DNA from: a virus
Lineage: Duplodnaviria; Heunggongvirae; Uroviricota; Caudoviricetes
IMG/VR virus record: IMGVR_UViG_2541047726_000008
Length of the DNA: 20,558 nt
Direction: 5' to 3' (one strand)
Part shown: in pieces, positions 1,422-9,564 of the stretch
Layout: each line of letters begins with the position of its first letter
How positions within the stretch are numbered: the stretch's first letter is position 1
The notes under the pieces: generated by a model
Told to the model about the DNA's origin: nothing
The model's input: only the letters and a program-made list of their open reading frames with translations
The model's database searches: none
Translations under genes and position numbers: made by a program

Positions 1422-3896
1422 TTAAAAATCAGCCTGATTCGGGATCAGTTTTTGCCAGATAGTTGAAACGTATTTTGCCTGGTAACGGGCATCATCCAGC
1501 GCATTGTGGCGCTCACCTTCGAATGGAATAGCCGCCCTGGCATCGAAGTCCATGGCTTTTCCCAGCTCAACGATTGTGCGTACATCGCGATCGTTGTAGT
1601 AACGCCACGGGCAGGGGATCCCCTGCCGTTCGTATGAACGGCGCAAAATCGTGTTGTCGAAGTTGGCTCCATTTCCCCAGACCTGAACAAAAAATTCGCC
1701 GGAGTTTTCGTCGATAAATTCCCGCAATTGCAGCAGTGCATCATCTAACGGGATTTCATCGGTCAGAATGGCAGATTGCGCCTCCCGTGATTGCTTAAGC
1801 CACCATTTAATGGTGCCACGATCAATGACTCCGCCAGCAGTATCCATATCGATGGTCTTACTAAATTCCGGCCCCATATCTCCGGTTTGCGGATCGAAAA
1901 ATATTGCACCTATTGAGATAAGCGGGGCATCGGGATTTTTTCCCATGGTTTCAAGGTCGATCATCATGTGGTGCCACATTCTGCTGGTGGATGTGATTTC
2001 TTGATGACCGTTCACCTTAATTGAGTGATCTGCCGTCTCGCCAGTTTCATTATCGCTATCGTGATGCTGATTGCCGCCAGTGTTCTCCTTGTGTGGATGT
2101 TCAGCGCCTTCCATTTCCTCCGGATCATCTTCCTGAACTTCAGGCTGATACTCTTCATCGAATGTTTCCTGGTATGTTGCGTCGCCCATTACCGCGCCAC
2201 AATCAGGGCAGTTGCCGCCGCCGGTCTGACCGCAGGCGGTGCAGACTTTTTCCACTTCCTGTTGCGCCACTGATTCAGGCTGTTTCGTTTCTGGCTCGTT
2301 TTGTAACGCATTTGGGCTGTTTTGTTCCGCTTTCTGGTCGTTCTGTTCCGTTTCTTGCTGGTTCTGGTTCACAGAATCGCGGGTCTGGTTCCCCTTAACC
2401 CATTTCGGATCATTCGGGTCGCTAATCCCTTCAACAAATTCACCACGTGATACTGCAAGCAGTTCATCGGCGTCAGGCTGGCTGATATTGGCTGCCTGCA
2501 TAATTTTGTTTACTTCGTCAGCGGTAACTTTTACTGGCTCTGGTTGTGCGGTCGTGTCAGATGCACCAGTATTTTGTTGTGAACCTGAGTATGTACCGTT
2601 TTTACGTGCGAAGTATTCCTCTTTTGTGATTTCCGTAGCTCCCAGGGCCAGTGCTTTTTCCAGACCAGAAAGTTTGTTTGCGCGACCGTATTTTTCGCCG
2701 TCCTTATCGGTGAAAAGGAAGTAGAACGGTCCCTCACGCTCTACAGATGGTTCGTCTTCCACTTCGCATTCGGTTTTTTCGTTGTCCGGCATTGCCGTTT
2801 CCACTGCATCAGTTTCTGGTACTGGTGACGGGAGAGTACCAGCTGTGCCCTGATTTGTTCCTTCGTCATCTTCAAACACGCCCTTGGTAGTCAGGTATTC
2901 AGTGATGTATTTGTTCAGTGCTACGGGATCTTTGTGAATGTCGATCGGACGCTCACGGACAAGGCCAAAAATAGTCTGACGGTCGTAGCGAACGGCATCG
3001 GGTTGTTTGCGCATTGATGCGGAAATGCGCTTCCAGTCTTCGCGATCTTTGTCGATAACTTCATTTTTTGCCCAGCGATGGATGCTGCCGTCAATGTTTC
3101 CGGTATCAATATCGCCAGGCCAGAGAGCGTAGGCCAGTTCTTCATCCAGCGTTTTCCATGTCTGCTTGTATTCGCGACAAATGGCGGCAGTGACTGGGTT
3201 GATTTTTCCTGCTGAGTTTTCAGTGTTCTGTTGATTGACTCTGGCGCGGGCGAGATCAACAACAGACGTGTATTTTCCGGTTTCCTTGCGTTCACCTTCG
3301 CGACGTTTTTTCCAGATGCGCATCTCTGCCTGAATTTCGGGCCATTTGGCACCAGGCTTACATTTATGCTTAACCCACCCGATGGCATGCAGCTTAAGCT
3401 CCGGATACATGGCGTTAACTTCTGGCATTTTCATCAACGCTTCAACGATATGTCCGTCGAATGTTGCCATGTCTTCCTGCAACAATTCCTGTGCGCTAAT
3501 AACCATATCAACGGTGATGTTTTCACATGTGTCGAACTTAACCATGACAGCGTTCTGTACTTCAGGGACCAGCTTGTCAAAAGTGACGTTCATCGGATCT
3601 GATTCAGTCTCAACCGGGACAAAGGAAGCAGACTCCTCATCCCAGCGGTTTTCCTGCATATATTCAGCATCCCAGGAATCGAGGGCAGGGCGGGGTATGC
3701 CGGGTTTATCCTCACAGACAATAAATTTATAAGCGCAGTCCTGAGCTGCAGGGAATTGCTCCAGAAATTGCCAATGAAATTTTGCGCGTGCGCGACGCTC
3801 ATCACCAGCTTCAATGGCAGTGGCCACCGCAACAGCGCTATCTTCTTTTATGGCCTGTTCATCAGGAATAGCAGCGCAAATAAAGACTTTACTCAT
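1422..3896 (-). CDS. Large prophage exonuclease: unknown N-terminal region, acidic linker with CxxC…CxxC zinc ribbon, C-terminal DnaQ-like 3'-5' exonuclease domain
   Basis: 824-aa ORF, ATG at 3896 with GAGGT 8 nt upstream. C-terminal about 180 aa carries DEDDh-type exonuclease motifs (MIDLETMG…, …HNALDDARYQAKY). Middle is Q/E/N/D-rich low complexity containing CTACGQTGGGNCPDCG. Confidence 0.85.
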   Translation of the reverse strand: MSKVFICAAIPDEQAIKEDSAVAVATAIEAGDERRARAKFHWQFLEQFPAAQDCAYKFIVCEDKPGIPRPALDSWDAEYMQENRWDEESASFVPVETESDPMNVTFDKLVPEVQNAVMVKFDTCENITVDMVISAQELLQEDMATFDGHIVEALMKMPEVNAMYPELKLHAIGWVKHKCKPGAKWPEIQAEMRIWKKRREGERKETGKYTSVVDLARARVNQQNTENSAGKINPVTAAICREYKQTWKTLDEELAYALWPGDIDTGNIDGSIHRWAKNEVIDKDREDWKRISASMRKQPDAVRYDRQTIFGLVRERPIDIHKDPVALNKYITEYLTTKGVFEDDEGTNQGTAGTLPSPVPETDAVETAMPDNEKTECEVEDEPSVEREGPFYFLFTDKDGEKYGRANKLSGLEKALALGATEITKEEYFARKNGTYSGSQQNTGASDTTAQPEPVKVTADEVNKIMQAANISQPDADELLAVSRGEFVEGISDPNDPKWVKGNQTRDSVNQNQQETEQNDQKAEQNSPNALQNEPETKQPESVAQQEVEKVCTACGQTGGGNCPDCGAVMGDATYQETFDEEYQPEVQEDDPEEMEGAEHPHKENTGGNQHHDSDNETGETADHSIKVNGHQEITSTSRMWHHMMIDLETMGKNPDAPLISIGAIFFDPQTGDMGPEFSKTIDMDTAGGVIDRGTIKWWLKQSREAQSAILTDEIPLDDALLQLREFIDENSGEFFVQVWGNGANFDNTILRRSYERQGIPCPWRYYNDRDVRTIVELGKAMDFDARAAIPFEGERHNALDDARYQAKYVSTIWQKLIPNQADF

Positions 3897-6744: not shown

Positions 6745-7206
6745 CTACTGGTTACGTTTCTTTAGTGCCAGCATGTTCTCGAAGGCTTCCTCGTAGAGCT
6801 TGTTTAGTCCACGTAGCTGGTTAAGGAGTTTGGCTTTTTCTGACGCAGGTAGAATCTCGAAGAGGTTAAGTAACTCTGCCTGTTCTTCATTGACCAGCCT
6901 CCATCCTTTGCCTGAAAAGTTATCATCATAAGTATCTGATGATCTTACATAATTCATTAAGTCTTTAAGGTCTTCTCGAATGTCCTCTGGTTTTACCTTT
7001 AACAGAGCCGCAAATTTTAGCGCAGCGTCGGTATTTACCGGTATCTTGCCGTTCAGATACTGGCTAACGGTGCCTTGAGATTCGAATCCCAACAACTCAG
7101 CCGCCAGCTCTTGAGTCAGCTTCAGCTCTTTTTTTCTTGCATTCCATGCGGCTTTTAAATTCTTGCTCGCTTCTGGAGTTGCAATCACTTCGCGTGTTTT
7201 TTTCAT
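6745..7206 (-). CDS. CI-like prophage repressor (XRE-family HTH, no S24 peptidase domain)
   Basis: 153 aa. HTH at residues about 30-50 (LTQELAAELLGFESQGTVSQYLNG). C-terminal about 70 aa has no Ser/Lys autocleavage motif pattern. Divergent from the cro-like gene. No SD before the ATG; predicted promoter places the TSS at or next to the ATG. Confidence 0.8.
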   Translation of the reverse strand: MKKTREVIATPEASKNLKAAWNARKKELKLTQELAAELLGFESQGTVSQYLNGKIPVNTDAALKFAALLKVKPEDIREDLKDLMNYVRSSDTYDDNFSGKGWRLVNEEQAELLNLFEILPASEKAKLLNQLRGLNKLYEEAFENMLALKKRNQ

Positions 7207-7283: not shown

Positions 7284-7313
7284 TTGCTCGAGGCATAACG
7301 TAGAAGGTTGGCT

Positions 7314-7589
7314 ATGAACTTAAGAGACTATTTAAAAGAGAAACATATTACCCAGCTACAGTTTGGGAAGCTAACGGGTTTATCTCAGGTGCATGTAAGT
7401 CGAGTGCTGGGGGGCTATGAAAGATTCAGCCCTGAAAAAGCATTACGTGTTGCTGAAGTAACGAATTTCGAGGTTACACCTCATGAACTCCGGCCTGATA
7501 TTTACCCGAATCCAACCGACGGCTTACCTGTTGGATTCAAGGCTAACACACCAAATGCATCGGAGTTGATTCATGAAAATCAGGCATGA
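7314..7589 (+). CDS. Cro-like (YdaS-like) HTH DNA-binding protein
   Basis: Track start is TTG at 7308; ATG at 7314 has GAAGG upstream. 91 aa, N-terminal HTH (ITQLQFGKLTGLSQVHVSRVL). Position divergent from the repressor. Confidence 0.7.
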   Translation: MNLRDYLKEKHITQLQFGKLTGLSQVHVSRVLGGYERFSPEKALRVAEVTNFEVTPHELRPDIYPNPTDGLPVGFKANTPNASELIHENQA

Positions 7590-7998
7590 GCACATCCGCA
7601 TGGCGATGAATGCCTGGGCGCATCCGGACGGTGAAAAAGTTCCGGCAGCTGAAATAACCCGGGCTTATTTTGAGCTTGGTATGACGTTCCCGGAATTATA
7701 TGACGACAGCCATCCGGAAGCCCTGGCTCGCAATACCCAGAAAATTTTCCGCTGGGTGGAGAAAGACACTCCTGATGCGGTTAAAAAAATTCAGGCGTTG
7801 TTACCAGCGATCGAAAAAGCAATGCCGCCTCTGCTGGTGGCCCGAATGCGCAGCCACAGTTCAGCTTATTTTCGGGAGCTGGTGGAGACGCGGGAACGAC
7901 TGGTGAGAGACGCTGATGATTTTGTCGCAGTGGCGATCGCTGGTTTCAACCAGATGAATCGCGGTGGCCCTGCAGGAAATATTGTGGCTGTGCATTGA
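7573..7998 (+). CDS. CII/YdaT-like regulatory protein
   Basis: 141 aa, ATG at 7573 with GGAG 7 nt upstream, 17-nt overlap with the cro-like gene. Starts MKIRHEHI…, similar from memory to Rac YdaT / CII-family proteins that follow Cro-like genes. Confidence 0.55.
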   Translation: MKIRHEHIRMAMNAWAHPDGEKVPAAEITRAYFELGMTFPELYDDSHPEALARNTQKIFRWVEKDTPDAVKKIQALLPAIEKAMPPLLVARMRSHSSAYFRELVETRERLVRDADDFVAVAIAGFNQMNRGGPAGNIVAVH

Positions 7999-8069
7999 CT
8001 CGCAATATTCATACCGGATCACTTCCGGCAATTTGTGAGTAAAAAGATTCGGTATCAGAAGAGGTGAGT

Positions 8070-9110
8070 ATGGCTAACGCCTGGCTCAGATTATGGCATG
8101 ACATGCCAAATGACCCTAAGTGGCGAACAATTGCCAGGGTGTCAGGGCAGCCAATTGCAACAGTGATGGCAGTGTATATCCACCTTCTGGTGAGCGCGTC
8201 ACGAAATGTCACGACATGTCACGGCGTGTCACTACGTGGTCACATTGATGTCACGACGGAAGATTTAGCAAGTGCGCTTGATGTGACGGAAGAAGTAATT
8301 GATTCAATTTTACAGGCAATGCAGGGGCGGGTACTTGATGGAGATTTAATCACCGGATGGGAAAAACGCCAGGTACTGAAAGAGGACAATGGCAACGTTT
8401 CACAAACCGCGAAATCCCCGGCAGAGCGCAAGAGAGCGCAGCGCGAGAGGGAAAAATTACGAAAACAGAATGAGGGGTGTCACGACGAGTCACGCATATG
8501 TCACGACATGTCACGACGAGTCACGACAGATAAAGATACAGATAAAGAATTAAACCCCACACATAACGCGCACGTGCGCGAGAGTGCTCCGACCAGTGAG
8601 TCGAGTGGTACGCCGTTGCAGGCAGCAGAACCTGCATCCCTGGATGGACTGAGCGAACCCATCGGGAAATTTCCGATGGTCGATGACTGGCATCCGTCGC
8701 CGGATTTTCGACGACGGGCTGCGTTGTGGGGGATGGCTTTGCCGGAGCCGGAATTTACACCTGCTGAACTTGCCGCTTTCCGGGACTACTGGGCAGCGGA
8801 GGGGAAAGTTTTCACGCAGGTTCAGTGGGAGCAGAAATTCGCCCGTCACGTAAATCACGTCAGGGCGCAGGTTAAGCCAGTCAGCAAGGGGGTAAACCAT
8901 GCAGCAGCACCAGGTGGCACCGCATCACGGGCAGTTCAGGAAATTCGGGCAGCACGTGAGCAGTGGGAACGTGAAAACGGATTTATCAGCGACGGAAACG
9001 GTCTGGAAGCTGTGGGAACTCATGGGGGAGGTTTATTCGAACCGCTGGACCCAGAAGAACGGGGCCGCACCTTCGAAGCTCTGGATTGCACAGATTGGCG
9101 CGATGACTGA
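8070..9110 (+). CDS. Replication initiator (O-like, iteron-containing) with DnaT-like C-terminal region
   Basis: Track start is GTG 8064; ATG at 8070 has GAGGTGAG upstream. 346 aa. The gene contains two iteron arrays. Residues about 200-260 (IGKFPMVDDWHPSPDFRRRAALWGMALPEPEFTPAELAAFRDYWAAEGKVFTQVQWEQKFARH) closely resemble E. coli DnaT C-terminus as recalled. The last about 70 codons overlap the P-like ORF out of frame. Confidence 0.7.
   Translation: MANAWLRLWHDMPNDPKWRTIARVSGQPIATVMAVYIHLLVSASRNVTTCHGVSLRGHIDVTTEDLASALDVTEEVIDSILQAMQGRVLDGDLITGWEKRQVLKEDNGNVSQTAKSPAERKRAQREREKLRKQNEGCHDESRICHDMSRRVTTDKDTDKELNPTHNAHVRESAPTSESSGTPLQAAEPASLDGLSEPIGKFPMVDDWHPSPDFRRRAALWGMALPEPEFTPAELAAFRDYWAAEGKVFTQVQWEQKFARHVNHVRAQVKPVSKGVNHAAAPGGTASRAVQEIRAAREQWERENGFISDGNGLEAVGTHGGGLFEPLDPEERGRTFEALDCTDWRDD
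8198..8254. repeat. Iteron array 1 (6 x GTCAC[G/T], 10-11 bp period) - putative ori
   Basis: GTCAC begins at 8198, 8208, 8218, 8228, 8239, 8250. Helical-turn spacing inside the initiator gene, as in lambda ori within O. Confidence 0.65.
8479..8524. repeat. Iteron array 2 (5 x GTCACG, 10-11 bp period) with adjacent AT-rich stretch
   Basis: GTCAC begins at 8479, 8489, 8500, 8510, 8520, followed directly by AT-rich ACAGATAAAGATACAGATAAAGAATTAAA (8525-8555), a candidate DNA unwinding element. Confidence 0.65.
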
Positions 9111-9564
9111 GCAGCAAATCCGACAGGTCTGCCGCCAGTGCATGGACCGCTGCCGGGCGGGTGAAACATGGCCCCCGGACCTGGCTGAGTTTGTGGCGCT
9201 GATTTCAGAAAGCGGGGCCAATCCATTTGGCCTGACGGTGGATGCTGTGATGGAGGAGTACCGCCGCTGGCGTGATGAGTCCTGGCGATATGACGGAAGC
9301 GACAAATATCCGTGGCCTCAGCCTGTGCTGTACCACATCTGCCTCGAAATGCGTACCAGAGGGATTGAGCGCCAGATGACGCAGGGTGAGTTAAAACGAC
9401 TTGCGGAACGGCAACTGACGAAATGGGCAAAGCATGTTGGTAACGGGATGAGTGTTCCGCCAGTGCGACGACAACTGGAAGGGGCGAAACACCCGCAAGG
9501 GCCAACGCCAATTGAACGGCTGAAACAGGAATACGAACGCCGGAAGGCAGCTGGTTTTATTTGA
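8899..9564 (+). CDS. Lambda-P-like replication protein (helicase loader)
   Basis: 221-aa ORF; ATG at 8899 has a strong AAGGGGG SD. C-terminal two thirds resemble lambda P as recalled (…ETWPPDLAEFVALISES… vs …FLPSPGQFVAWCREE…). Start is uncertain: 8899 overlaps the O-like ORF by 212 nt; the alternative ATG at 9103 overlaps the O stop as ATGACTGA. Confidence 0.6.
   Translation: MQQHQVAPHHGQFRKFGQHVSSGNVKTDLSATETVWKLWELMGEVYSNRWTQKNGAAPSKLWIAQIGAMTEQQIRQVCRQCMDRCRAGETWPPDLAEFVALISESGANPFGLTVDAVMEEYRRWRDESWRYDGSDKYPWPQPVLYHICLEMRTRGIERQMTQGELKRLAERQLTKWAKHVGNGMSVPPVRRQLEGAKHPQGPTPIERLKQEYERRKAAGFI

Follow-up and report, generated by a model that had tools for sequence, protein, structure and literature searches.

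A conserved 212-nt out-of-frame overlap between an O-like initiator gene and a P-like helicase-loader gene of a lambdoid phage: a probable dual-coding junction

In the tailed-phage record IMGVR_UViG_2541047726_000008 (IMG/VR; Duplodnaviria, Heunggongvirae, Uroviricota, Caudoviricetes), which comprises 20,558 nt and is referred to here as the window, an O-like replication initiator gene and a P-like helicase-loader gene share 212 nt in different reading frames. We consider it highly likely that this overlap is an ancient, widespread and genuine dual-coding junction of two replication genes, and that it represents neither a frameshift artefact nor a late start of P. An earlier note on this DNA, made from the letters of the sequence, had described an O frame running to 9110 and a P frame opening at 8899 behind the Shine-Dalgarno (SD) sequence AAGGGGG, and had named a genuine long overlap, a frameshift that fused or extended O, and a late P start at 9103 as possible explanations. 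The list of open reading frames (ORFs) and the sequence bear out this arrangement and the overlap length of 212 nt. The O-like ORF opens with GTG at 8064, RefSeq places its start at the ATG at 8070, and its stop codon is the TGA at 9108-9110; O residues are counted here from the GTG (348 aa).

Judged by sequence similarity, P is a member of the lambda P helicase-loader family (PF06992/phrog_109). It matches PF06992 (Phage_lambda_P) at residues 55-188 with 59.3 bits (cut-off 26) and phrog_109 (“P-like helicase loader”) at residues 19-221 (E = 2.2e-63). The P family profile also aligns to lambda P, for which a structure with DnaB has been solved (sequence 8v9t_V; E = 2.6e-6; residues 57-188 correspond to lambda 70-202). 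Since P residue 57 is aligned at lambda residue 70, the 221-aa P corresponds end to end to the 233-aa lambda P. The O-like protein is a putative DnaT-domain phage initiator (PF17948) with iterons inside its own gene and predicted origin binding. Its residues 203-269 match the DnaT domain of Pfam with 64.1 bits (cut-off 25), and the similarity to DnaT ends at residue 269-273 (~nt 8870-8882), in agreement with the earlier note, which had seen it end near 8880.

The spread of the overlap was assessed in 30 Enterobacterales loci, with one genome per species. In 27 of these loci the upstream ORF overlaps the first ATG of the P frame by 149-242 nt, mostly by 212 or 215 nt, and the relative frame is constant. 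The genera in which the overlap occurs include Escherichia, Citrobacter, Enterobacter, Klebsiella, Salmonella, Pluralibacter, Phytobacter, Kluyvera, Scandinavium, Pectobacterium, Buttiauxella, Serratia, Samsonia, and Rouxiella. Locus L023 keeps it too when the aligned ATG is used, and the exceptions are L032, which has a frameshifted P, and L033, a solo P with no initiator upstream. Among close relatives, the overlap measures 212 or 209 nt in 82 of 83 cases; the two lengths differ by a 3-nt indel that preserves both frames. A comparison of this junction for indels had been proposed in the earlier note. Citrobacter phage Chris1 has an overlap of 215 nt. Even in six Vibrio phages, the P proteins of which are only ~25–30% identical, an overlap of 113-230 nt with an unchanged relative frame was found, and a recognizably homologous O tail (A.Q.I.AAR.ER ... 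G..G.D....VD.EER/W.G..ID) is present in five of them. At the DNA level, the “replication protein P” of this widespread prophage family was matched in 2564 of 5426 complete E. coli genomes.

The start of P is conserved within this overlap. A TAA stop codon of the P frame at 8893-8895 makes the ATG at 8899 the first possible P start, and an equivalent ATG is present in all 27 diverged species-level loci. The O residue encoded across this ATG varies (H in 11 loci, N in 13, Y in two, and D in one), and the respective O codon always ends in T (CAT, AAT, TAT, or GAT in 27 of 27; the background for such codon pairs is 49% T). GGAGG, GAGG or GGGGG lies 5-9 nt upstream of the ATG in almost every locus. 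This SD sequence is usually encoded in the O frame as Gly-Gly with the codon GGA, which accounts for 21 of 45 Gly codons there compared to a background of 24%. Within the Enterobacteriaceae subset, the site diversity is 0.00 at the three bases of the ATG and 0.00-0.28 in the SD core, versus 0.5-0.77 in the surrounding linker. An RNA structure that would mask the P start was not indicated, as positions 8850-8960 fold no better than shuffled sequences (z = 0.24). With both frames open, the relative frame fixed, and the SD and ATG conserved from Enterobacterales to Vibrio phages, the genuine long overlap considered in the earlier note is the supported explanation.

Public databases mostly place the P start elsewhere. 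The RefSeq annotation by the Prokaryotic Genome Annotation Pipeline (PGAP) has O at 8070..9110 and P at the equivalent of 9103..9564 (153 aa), with an 8-nt overlap, in near-identical and 90%-identical E. coli chromosomes, and the phage records Rac-SA53 and vB_Apl-pPE4 use the same P start. This annotation implies a simple stop/start coupling, in which P would begin at the ATG at 9103 (M69 of the 221-aa protein) within ATGACTGA, and the P frame upstream of it would be an untranslated relic. ATGACTGA indeed resembles the ATGA coupling of the lambda type, and phi80 and phiV10 have overlaps of 4 nt. Nevertheless, we regard a start at 9103 as highly improbable. The ATG at 9103 overlaps the O stop with a poor SD, as noted earlier, and no SD-like sequence was found upstream of it. 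Furthermore, the M69 codon is ATG in only 19 of 29 genome loci; 10 loci have a codon for L, F or C in its place. In an alignment of 25 P homologues (44-94% identity), conservation starts near residue 36 (xxW.LWE.MGE.YSNRW..KNG..PS.LWIAQIG), and the six residues W50, K53, N54, G55, P58, and W62, all upstream of M69, are invariant. An AlphaFold2 model of P, built on the alignment, shows residues 1-29 as disordered (predicted local distance difference test (pLDDT) score <50), followed by helices at residues 29-54, 60-67, and 71-86, the first two of which would be lost with a start at 9103. When the 68 P residues upstream of 9103 were searched alone, they matched phrog_33198 (2.5e-9) and phrog_109 (2.9e-4, profile positions 21-73). 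The DNA upstream of 9103 also bears the wobble signature of the P frame, and the conserved core of P begins ~120 nt upstream of the O stop rather than within the 4-8 nt of a lambda-type coupling. Finally, the solo P homologue L033 starts 8 aa ahead of the conserved core and not within it. The earlier note had linked simple coupling to O homologues that align through to the end of the protein and P homologues that begin at 9103; the former was observed, but P homologues do not begin there.

By analogy with lambda, the annotated 153-aa form of P would be inactive in initiation, because an in-frame deletion of aa 9-86 of lambda P abolishes replication initiation (PMC3640518).

The P starts in public records are also inconsistent and usually placed in a way that minimizes the overlap. 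Later starts were chosen in the PPompW/Stx2a phages (140 aa) and in Citrobacter phage Chris1 (136 aa), and the start chosen by PGAP in further genera is the one equivalent to M42 (177–181 aa), whereas P has 221-223 aa in some older GenBank and metagenome gene calls. As other annotators choose M42 or later positions, such starts, including the one at 9103, look like the outcome of overlap-avoiding heuristics. A start at M42 (ATG 9022) would give a P of ~180 aa and an overlap of only 89 nt, and would leave the ATG at 8899 unused. This is unlikely, although M42 is ~90% conserved as a residue, a GGGAG-like sequence precedes it, and many RefSeq entries with 177-181 aa, among them the PGAP calls in Salmonella and Klebsiella, begin at this position. 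The SD-like GGGAG is a by-product of conserved Trp-Glu codons, with a spacing of just 3 nt to the ATG, and conserved residues (the LW[ED] motif) as well as the start of the helix 29-54 are located upstream of M42. A start at M42 would also leave the perfectly conserved SD and ATG at 8899, and the P frame that is open from there, unexplained.

The O frame, too, is conserved throughout the overlap. The last ~70 O codons had been called unsupported in the earlier note, which is not the case: the last 70 O residues, searched alone, matched phrog_3992 (6.5e-15) and phrog_1408 (1.3e-11), and they are conserved in homologues. Alignments of the O tail contain a conserved stretch, T-A-S-R-A-V-Q-x-I-x-A-A-R-E-x-W-E-R, behind which come a segment rich in Gly and an acidic terminus. 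In alignment A3, T90, S92, R93, A94, V95, Q96, I98, A101, and W105 of the helix are invariant. In the AlphaFold2 model of O, the confidently predicted DnaT domain is followed by a disordered linker, which holds the SD and ATG of P, a helix at residues 289-304 (pLDDT ~66), and a disordered segment at residues 308-348. The same tail occurs behind initiator bodies of at least four unrelated families, namely replisome-organiser/DnaT, HTH_36, Phage_rep_O, and DUF1376. A single-sequence search of the 70-aa tail against 1.84 billion representatives yielded 31 hits, several of which were low-complexity false positives, and was too insensitive to map the distribution of the tail; all true hits bear it at their C-terminus. 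An enrichment of aromatic residues near the end of the tail (16 of 18 loci versus 11.5 expected) was discarded, as it is too weak and the loci are not independent.

A comparison of position-specific diversity among 13 Enterobacteriaceae loci showed how the two frames divide the overlap. In the part that encodes O only (8670-8870), the third codon positions of the O frame (O3) are the most variable sites (0.53 vs 0.25-0.28), and the same holds for the helix part of the overlap at 8928-8981 (0.51 vs 0.24-0.29). In the rest of the overlap (8982-9107) it is the third positions of the P frame (P3) that vary most (0.41 vs 0.12-0.14), as they do in the sequence that encodes P only (9111-9561; 0.50 vs 0.09-0.14). 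The constraint is thus partitioned, with the O frame ruling 8928-8981 and the P frame ruling 8982-9107. This change from an O-type to a P-type wobble pattern indicates that the conserved O helix lies over the variable P leader, and that the conserved P helices lie over the disordered end of O. A simple excess of synonymous conservation over the whole overlap was not seen (codon identity 0.50 vs 0.43, a confounded comparison).

The overlap is not striking in a single sequence, and its significance stems from its conservation across lineages. In the sequence studied here, the probability of an open O frame given the P protein is 0.145, and that of an open P frame given the O protein is 0.29. When the P codons were recoded synonymously across the loci, the O frame remained open through the overlap with a median probability of 0.034 per locus, and the reverse test gave 0.21. 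Outside the overlap, the O frame contains 208 stops in 4043 P codons, and the P frame contains 319 stops in 7499 O codons. When grouped at <70% nt identity, the overlaps fall into 11 clusters, and at <80% into 17. Between clusters, the synonymous sites have nearly reached saturation (codon identity ~0.43 for pairs encoding the same residue). If half of the clusters are taken as independent, the joint probability is many orders of magnitude <0.01, according to a rough estimate that is not tree-based.

These data also bear on the possibility of a neutral accident, in which O lost its stop codon and a functionless extension has persisted since stops are hard to create over the constrained P. Such an origin would fit the disorder and the P-dictated motifs of the second half of the tail, the merely slight reduction of synonymous variation in P, and the variable tail length. 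We consider it very unlikely, because the second half of the overlap would be stop-free with a probability of only ~0.21 per lineage (O open given the P protein), and yet the O frame was kept open in all but one lineage, that is, in nearly all of at least 11 synonymously saturated lineages and also in the Vibrio phages. Moreover, in 25 of 25 loci the acidity of the final 40 aa of O exceeds the null expectation from synonymous recoding of the P protein (mean z = −2.2), and the first half of the tail consists of a conserved helix that bears the wobble signature of the O frame. P3 diversity was lower in the overlap than in the P-only sequence (0.415 vs 0.504, p = 0.033), and hydrophobic and basic residues of the P leader were somewhat below expectation (mean z = −0.9 and −1.8, respectively).

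A switch of the wobble phase in the middle of the overlap could also be expected if programmed +1 frameshifting produced an O-P fusion, with the change near 8982 reflecting a single polypeptide. Fused O-P ORFs do exist in databases (P0119, P0103, P0179, and the 482 positions of phrog_15931). However, frameshifting is hardly conceivable as the explanation. It would require neither a conserved SD and ATG 80 nt upstream of the switch with an open P frame before it, nor an open and compositionally selected O frame behind it. No conserved shift motif was recognized when the junctions of a few loci were inspected, although no systematic motif search was made, and the fusions in databases join the frames at differing points. 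The natural fusions were therefore rejected as evidence: P0119 and P0103 have further frame breaks of the sort expected from decaying copies or sequencing errors, and P0179 is one isolated sequence. Both O and P hit phrog_15931, which suggests that this profile is a chimera derived from fusions of this kind. For the window, the frameshift that the earlier note had suspected of fusing or extending O lacks support, since the tail is conserved in many lineages and real fusions elsewhere are rare.

For an overlap of two separately initiated genes, the following scheme can be proposed. O and P would be read from one mRNA of the early operon. Ribosomes translating O would continue to the TGA at 9108-9110 and give a protein composed of an origin-binding N-terminus, the DnaT-like domain, a variable linker, and the ~70-aa tail with its conserved amphipathic helix and acidic disordered end. 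Other ribosomes would start independently at the internal SD (8886-8892) and the ATG at 8899 in the +1 frame, and would produce the 221-aa loader of the lambda P type, which consists of a disordered leader of 28 aa and a helical core. That both products are made is what we infer from the sequence. In the shared DNA, structured and conserved parts of one protein would be encoded over disordered, loosely constrained parts of the other. As the helix invariably accompanies this P clade, regardless of the body of the initiator, and in analogy to lambda O and P, the O tail probably functions as a P-docking adaptor that recruits this clade of P, together with DnaB, to the origin-bound initiator. Encoded by common DNA, adaptor and loader could not be parted by recombination and would be inherited as one unit. 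It is possible, though on balance doubtful, that the overlap is a linkage device in which the same ~210 nt encode both sides of the docking interface, namely the O-tail helix and acidic end on one side and the first P helices on the other. If so, the matched pair would be inseparable by the recombination that shuffles lambdoid genomes, and a cassette of tail and P could be grafted onto any origin-binding body. It would also be a clear case of overlapping frames selected for the co-inheritance of interacting partners. As a speculation, the overlap may go back to an ancestor in which O and P were fused or abutted and then underwent a +1 frameshift, with each product keeping an out-of-frame disordered overhang.

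Several observations weigh against parts of this interpretation. The adaptor role is derived from linkage and from the analogy with lambda O, and the linkage would be partly forced by the overlap itself. In locus L034 the tail is shortened to an overlap of 149 nt, and the overlaps of other loci vary by ~30 nt, which suggests that the extreme C-terminus of O is dispensable. Classical purifying selection acts in only one frame per half of the overlap, and a constraint of the P leader on O wobble sites was not detectable (0.507 vs 0.532, p = 0.32). The motifs EE[R/W] and [LMV]D..[DN][WR] at the end of O are dictated by the invariant KNG and LWIAQIG of P and thus do not represent independent conservation. 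In addition, M42 (ATG 9022) may serve as an additional start of P.

Table 1 Features of the O-P junction and the surrounding operon in the window.
Feature	Position	Strand	Evidence or remark
Lambdoid early-right operon	6745..7206 (repressor-like)	− (repressor-like)	Gene order: repressor-like, YdaS/Cro-like, YdaT-like, O-like, P-like, DUF1627, DUF977
O-like replication initiator gene	8070..9110	+	PF17948 DnaT domain, phrog_1408, phrog_3992, RefSeq WP_001262415.1
DnaT-like C-terminal domain, O residues 203-269	8670..8870	+	E. coli DnaT structures, E ~1e-20; AlphaFold2 pLDDT >90
Shine-Dalgarno AAGGGGG for P	8886..8892	+	6 nt before ATG; inside variable O linker
P start ATG	8899..8901	+	Embedded in O codons xAT-Gxx
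P leader, residues 1-28	8899..8982	+	Sequence variable; predicted disordered
Dual-coding overlap (probable)	8899..9110	+	212 nt; O residues 279-348 / P residues 1-70; P in +1 frame relative to O
P-like helicase loader gene, full length 221 aa	8899..9564	+	PF06992, phrog_109, lambda P structure sequence 8v9t
Conserved O-tail helix RAVQEIRAAREQWERE, O residues 289-304	8928..8975	+	Over disordered P leader; O-frame wobble signature
Disordered acidic O-tail end, O residues 305-348	8976..9107	+	pLDDT <50; over first P core helices; kept open
First P core helices, residues 29-54 and 60-67	8983..9099	+	Carry W50, K53, N54, G55, P58, W62; phrog_109 positions 21-73
ATGACTGA (ATG 9103 and TGA 9108-9110)	9103..9110	+	RefSeq/GenBank P start (M69) overlapping O stop; not a conserved start

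The O gene also contains two clusters of iterons with ~6 copies each of (A/G)TGTCACGAC in a 10-nt period, located at 8196-8257 and 8478-8537. Behind the second cluster, ACAGATAAAGA occurs twice as an AT-rich direct repeat (8526-8548). Together, the iterons and the AT-rich repeat look like a phage origin that is arranged as in the lambda ori. Directly past the iterons, at ~8528-8548, lies a mosaic joint inside O at which the DNA similarity to other phages is interrupted. The half of O upstream of this joint matches phage O genes that have different C-termini, and the downstream half (DnaT domain and tail) is found together with P behind DUF1376-type bodies elsewhere. The break in the DNA matches indicates that DnaT domain, tail, and P move as a single block; in some lineages the mobile block consists of tail and P only. 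No promoter-like or terminator-like sites were found on the plus strand of 7900-9538, and the minus-strand ORFs across the region (116, 163, and 90 aa) had no family matches. Further upstream, the YdaS/Cro-like ORF (7308-7589) and the YdaT-like ORF (7573-7998) overlap out of frame as well, by only 17 nt (7573-7589).

Some of the loci compared here have features of their own. The solo P homologue of Erwinia sp. MMLR14_017 (L033 2474-3043) has 189 aa and is situated between genes for a phosphotransferase system (PTS) transporter and a LysR-type regulator; it may be a domesticated helicase-loader gene. In the temperate Citrobacter phage Chris1 (L118 2290-3657), an arsenic-resistance operon (arsR, arsD, arsA) is located directly downstream of P. 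The record PP818812.1 (L116, “Actinobacillus phage vB_Apl-pPE4”) has ~90% DNA identity to E. coli prophages over the module, and its host label (Actinobacillus pleuropneumoniae) looks doubtful.

The overlap has practical consequences for annotation. “Replication protein P” has been entered 41-85 residues too short in RefSeq and phage records, and what is lost is the counterpart of a lambda P segment without which replication does not initiate; cloning of the annotated ORF would probably give a dead protein. In Vibrio phage D62 (L119 1501-2160), the 220-aa P homologue is annotated only as a hypothetical protein of 108 aa (1834..2160). The P of D62 is matched by 133 Vibrio phage records, the annotation of which may have the same problem. 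To our knowledge, few long and conserved same-strand out-of-frame overlaps exist between two well-understood bacterial or phage genes. With its age and clean division of constraint, the O-P overlap is a good natural model of sequence sharing by two proteins, and the portable tail of ~70 aa is likely a loader-recruiting element of several unrelated initiator families. An earlier description of this overlap was not found by full-text literature searching, which does not prove that none exists.

Among known systems, the chromosomal DopC/DopE pair likewise combines a protein with helix-turn-helix and DnaT_C domains and a lambda-P-like protein (Brezellec et al. 2017, PMC5509034). In contrast to the genes studied here, DopC and DopE are domesticated, and the word “overlap” is absent from the main text of that paper.

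The closest counterparts in gene organization are O-P of lambda and gp15-gp14 of phi80, in which an initiator gene that bears iterons is directly followed by a PF06992 loader gene on one transcript. In lambda, the initiator N-terminus binds the origin and the C-terminal parts of O are exchanged together with P. The N-terminal part of lambda P is essential (aa 9-86; PMC3640518). There are also differences: in lambda and phi80 the genes overlap by just 4 nt (ATGA), lambda P is in the other relative frame, and lambda O has its own C-domain, whereas the body of the O-like protein has a DnaT-like domain. Homology between the O tail and the C-terminus of lambda O was considered, as LD..(T)DW-like endings occur in lambda, in phi80 and here, but it was not detected (hhalign probability 0.1). 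It was dropped because the LD..(T)DW-like ending of O follows passively from the LWIAQIG of P.

A distant precedent for the extended O frame may be lambda O', the translation of which reads through the O stop and terminates within the P gene (Yates et al. 1977, as cited in PMC3640518). According to that secondary account, O is extended in its own frame into the region encoding the N-terminus of P, as in the present case. The lambda O frame is in fact open for 34 codons past its TGA, within the start of P (L117 1086-1190; phage lambda 39586-39690), which fits the old O' report as summarized there (PMC3640518). There are clear differences: O' is a minor product that depends on UGA read-through and gains 34 further codons, its relative frame is another one, and no sequence similarity to it was found, whereas the extension described here is constitutive, ~70 codons long, conserved, and acidic.

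The pairs of the phiV10/epsilon15 type share the DnaT-domain initiator directly upstream of a PF06992 P. However, their annotated overlap is 4 nt, O ends soon after the DnaT domain without a tail of helix and acidic end, and P has 261 aa with only 27% identity.

Out-of-frame overlapping phage genes that arose by overprinting are represented by phiX174 D/E, lambda Rz/Rz1, and MS2 L. As in the O-P overlap, two frames are used in these genes, and constrained parts lie over disordered or weakly constrained parts. The O-P junction differs from them in being a terminal overlap of tail over head, which joins two functionally interacting replication proteins, and in that each gene contributes one constrained half and neither is nested in the other. 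Compared to lambda, phi80, and phiV10, what is new is that ~70 codons overlap out of frame in a conserved manner and that the tail is portable. These features set this junction apart within a familiar arrangement of initiator and loader genes rather than making it a new kind of system.

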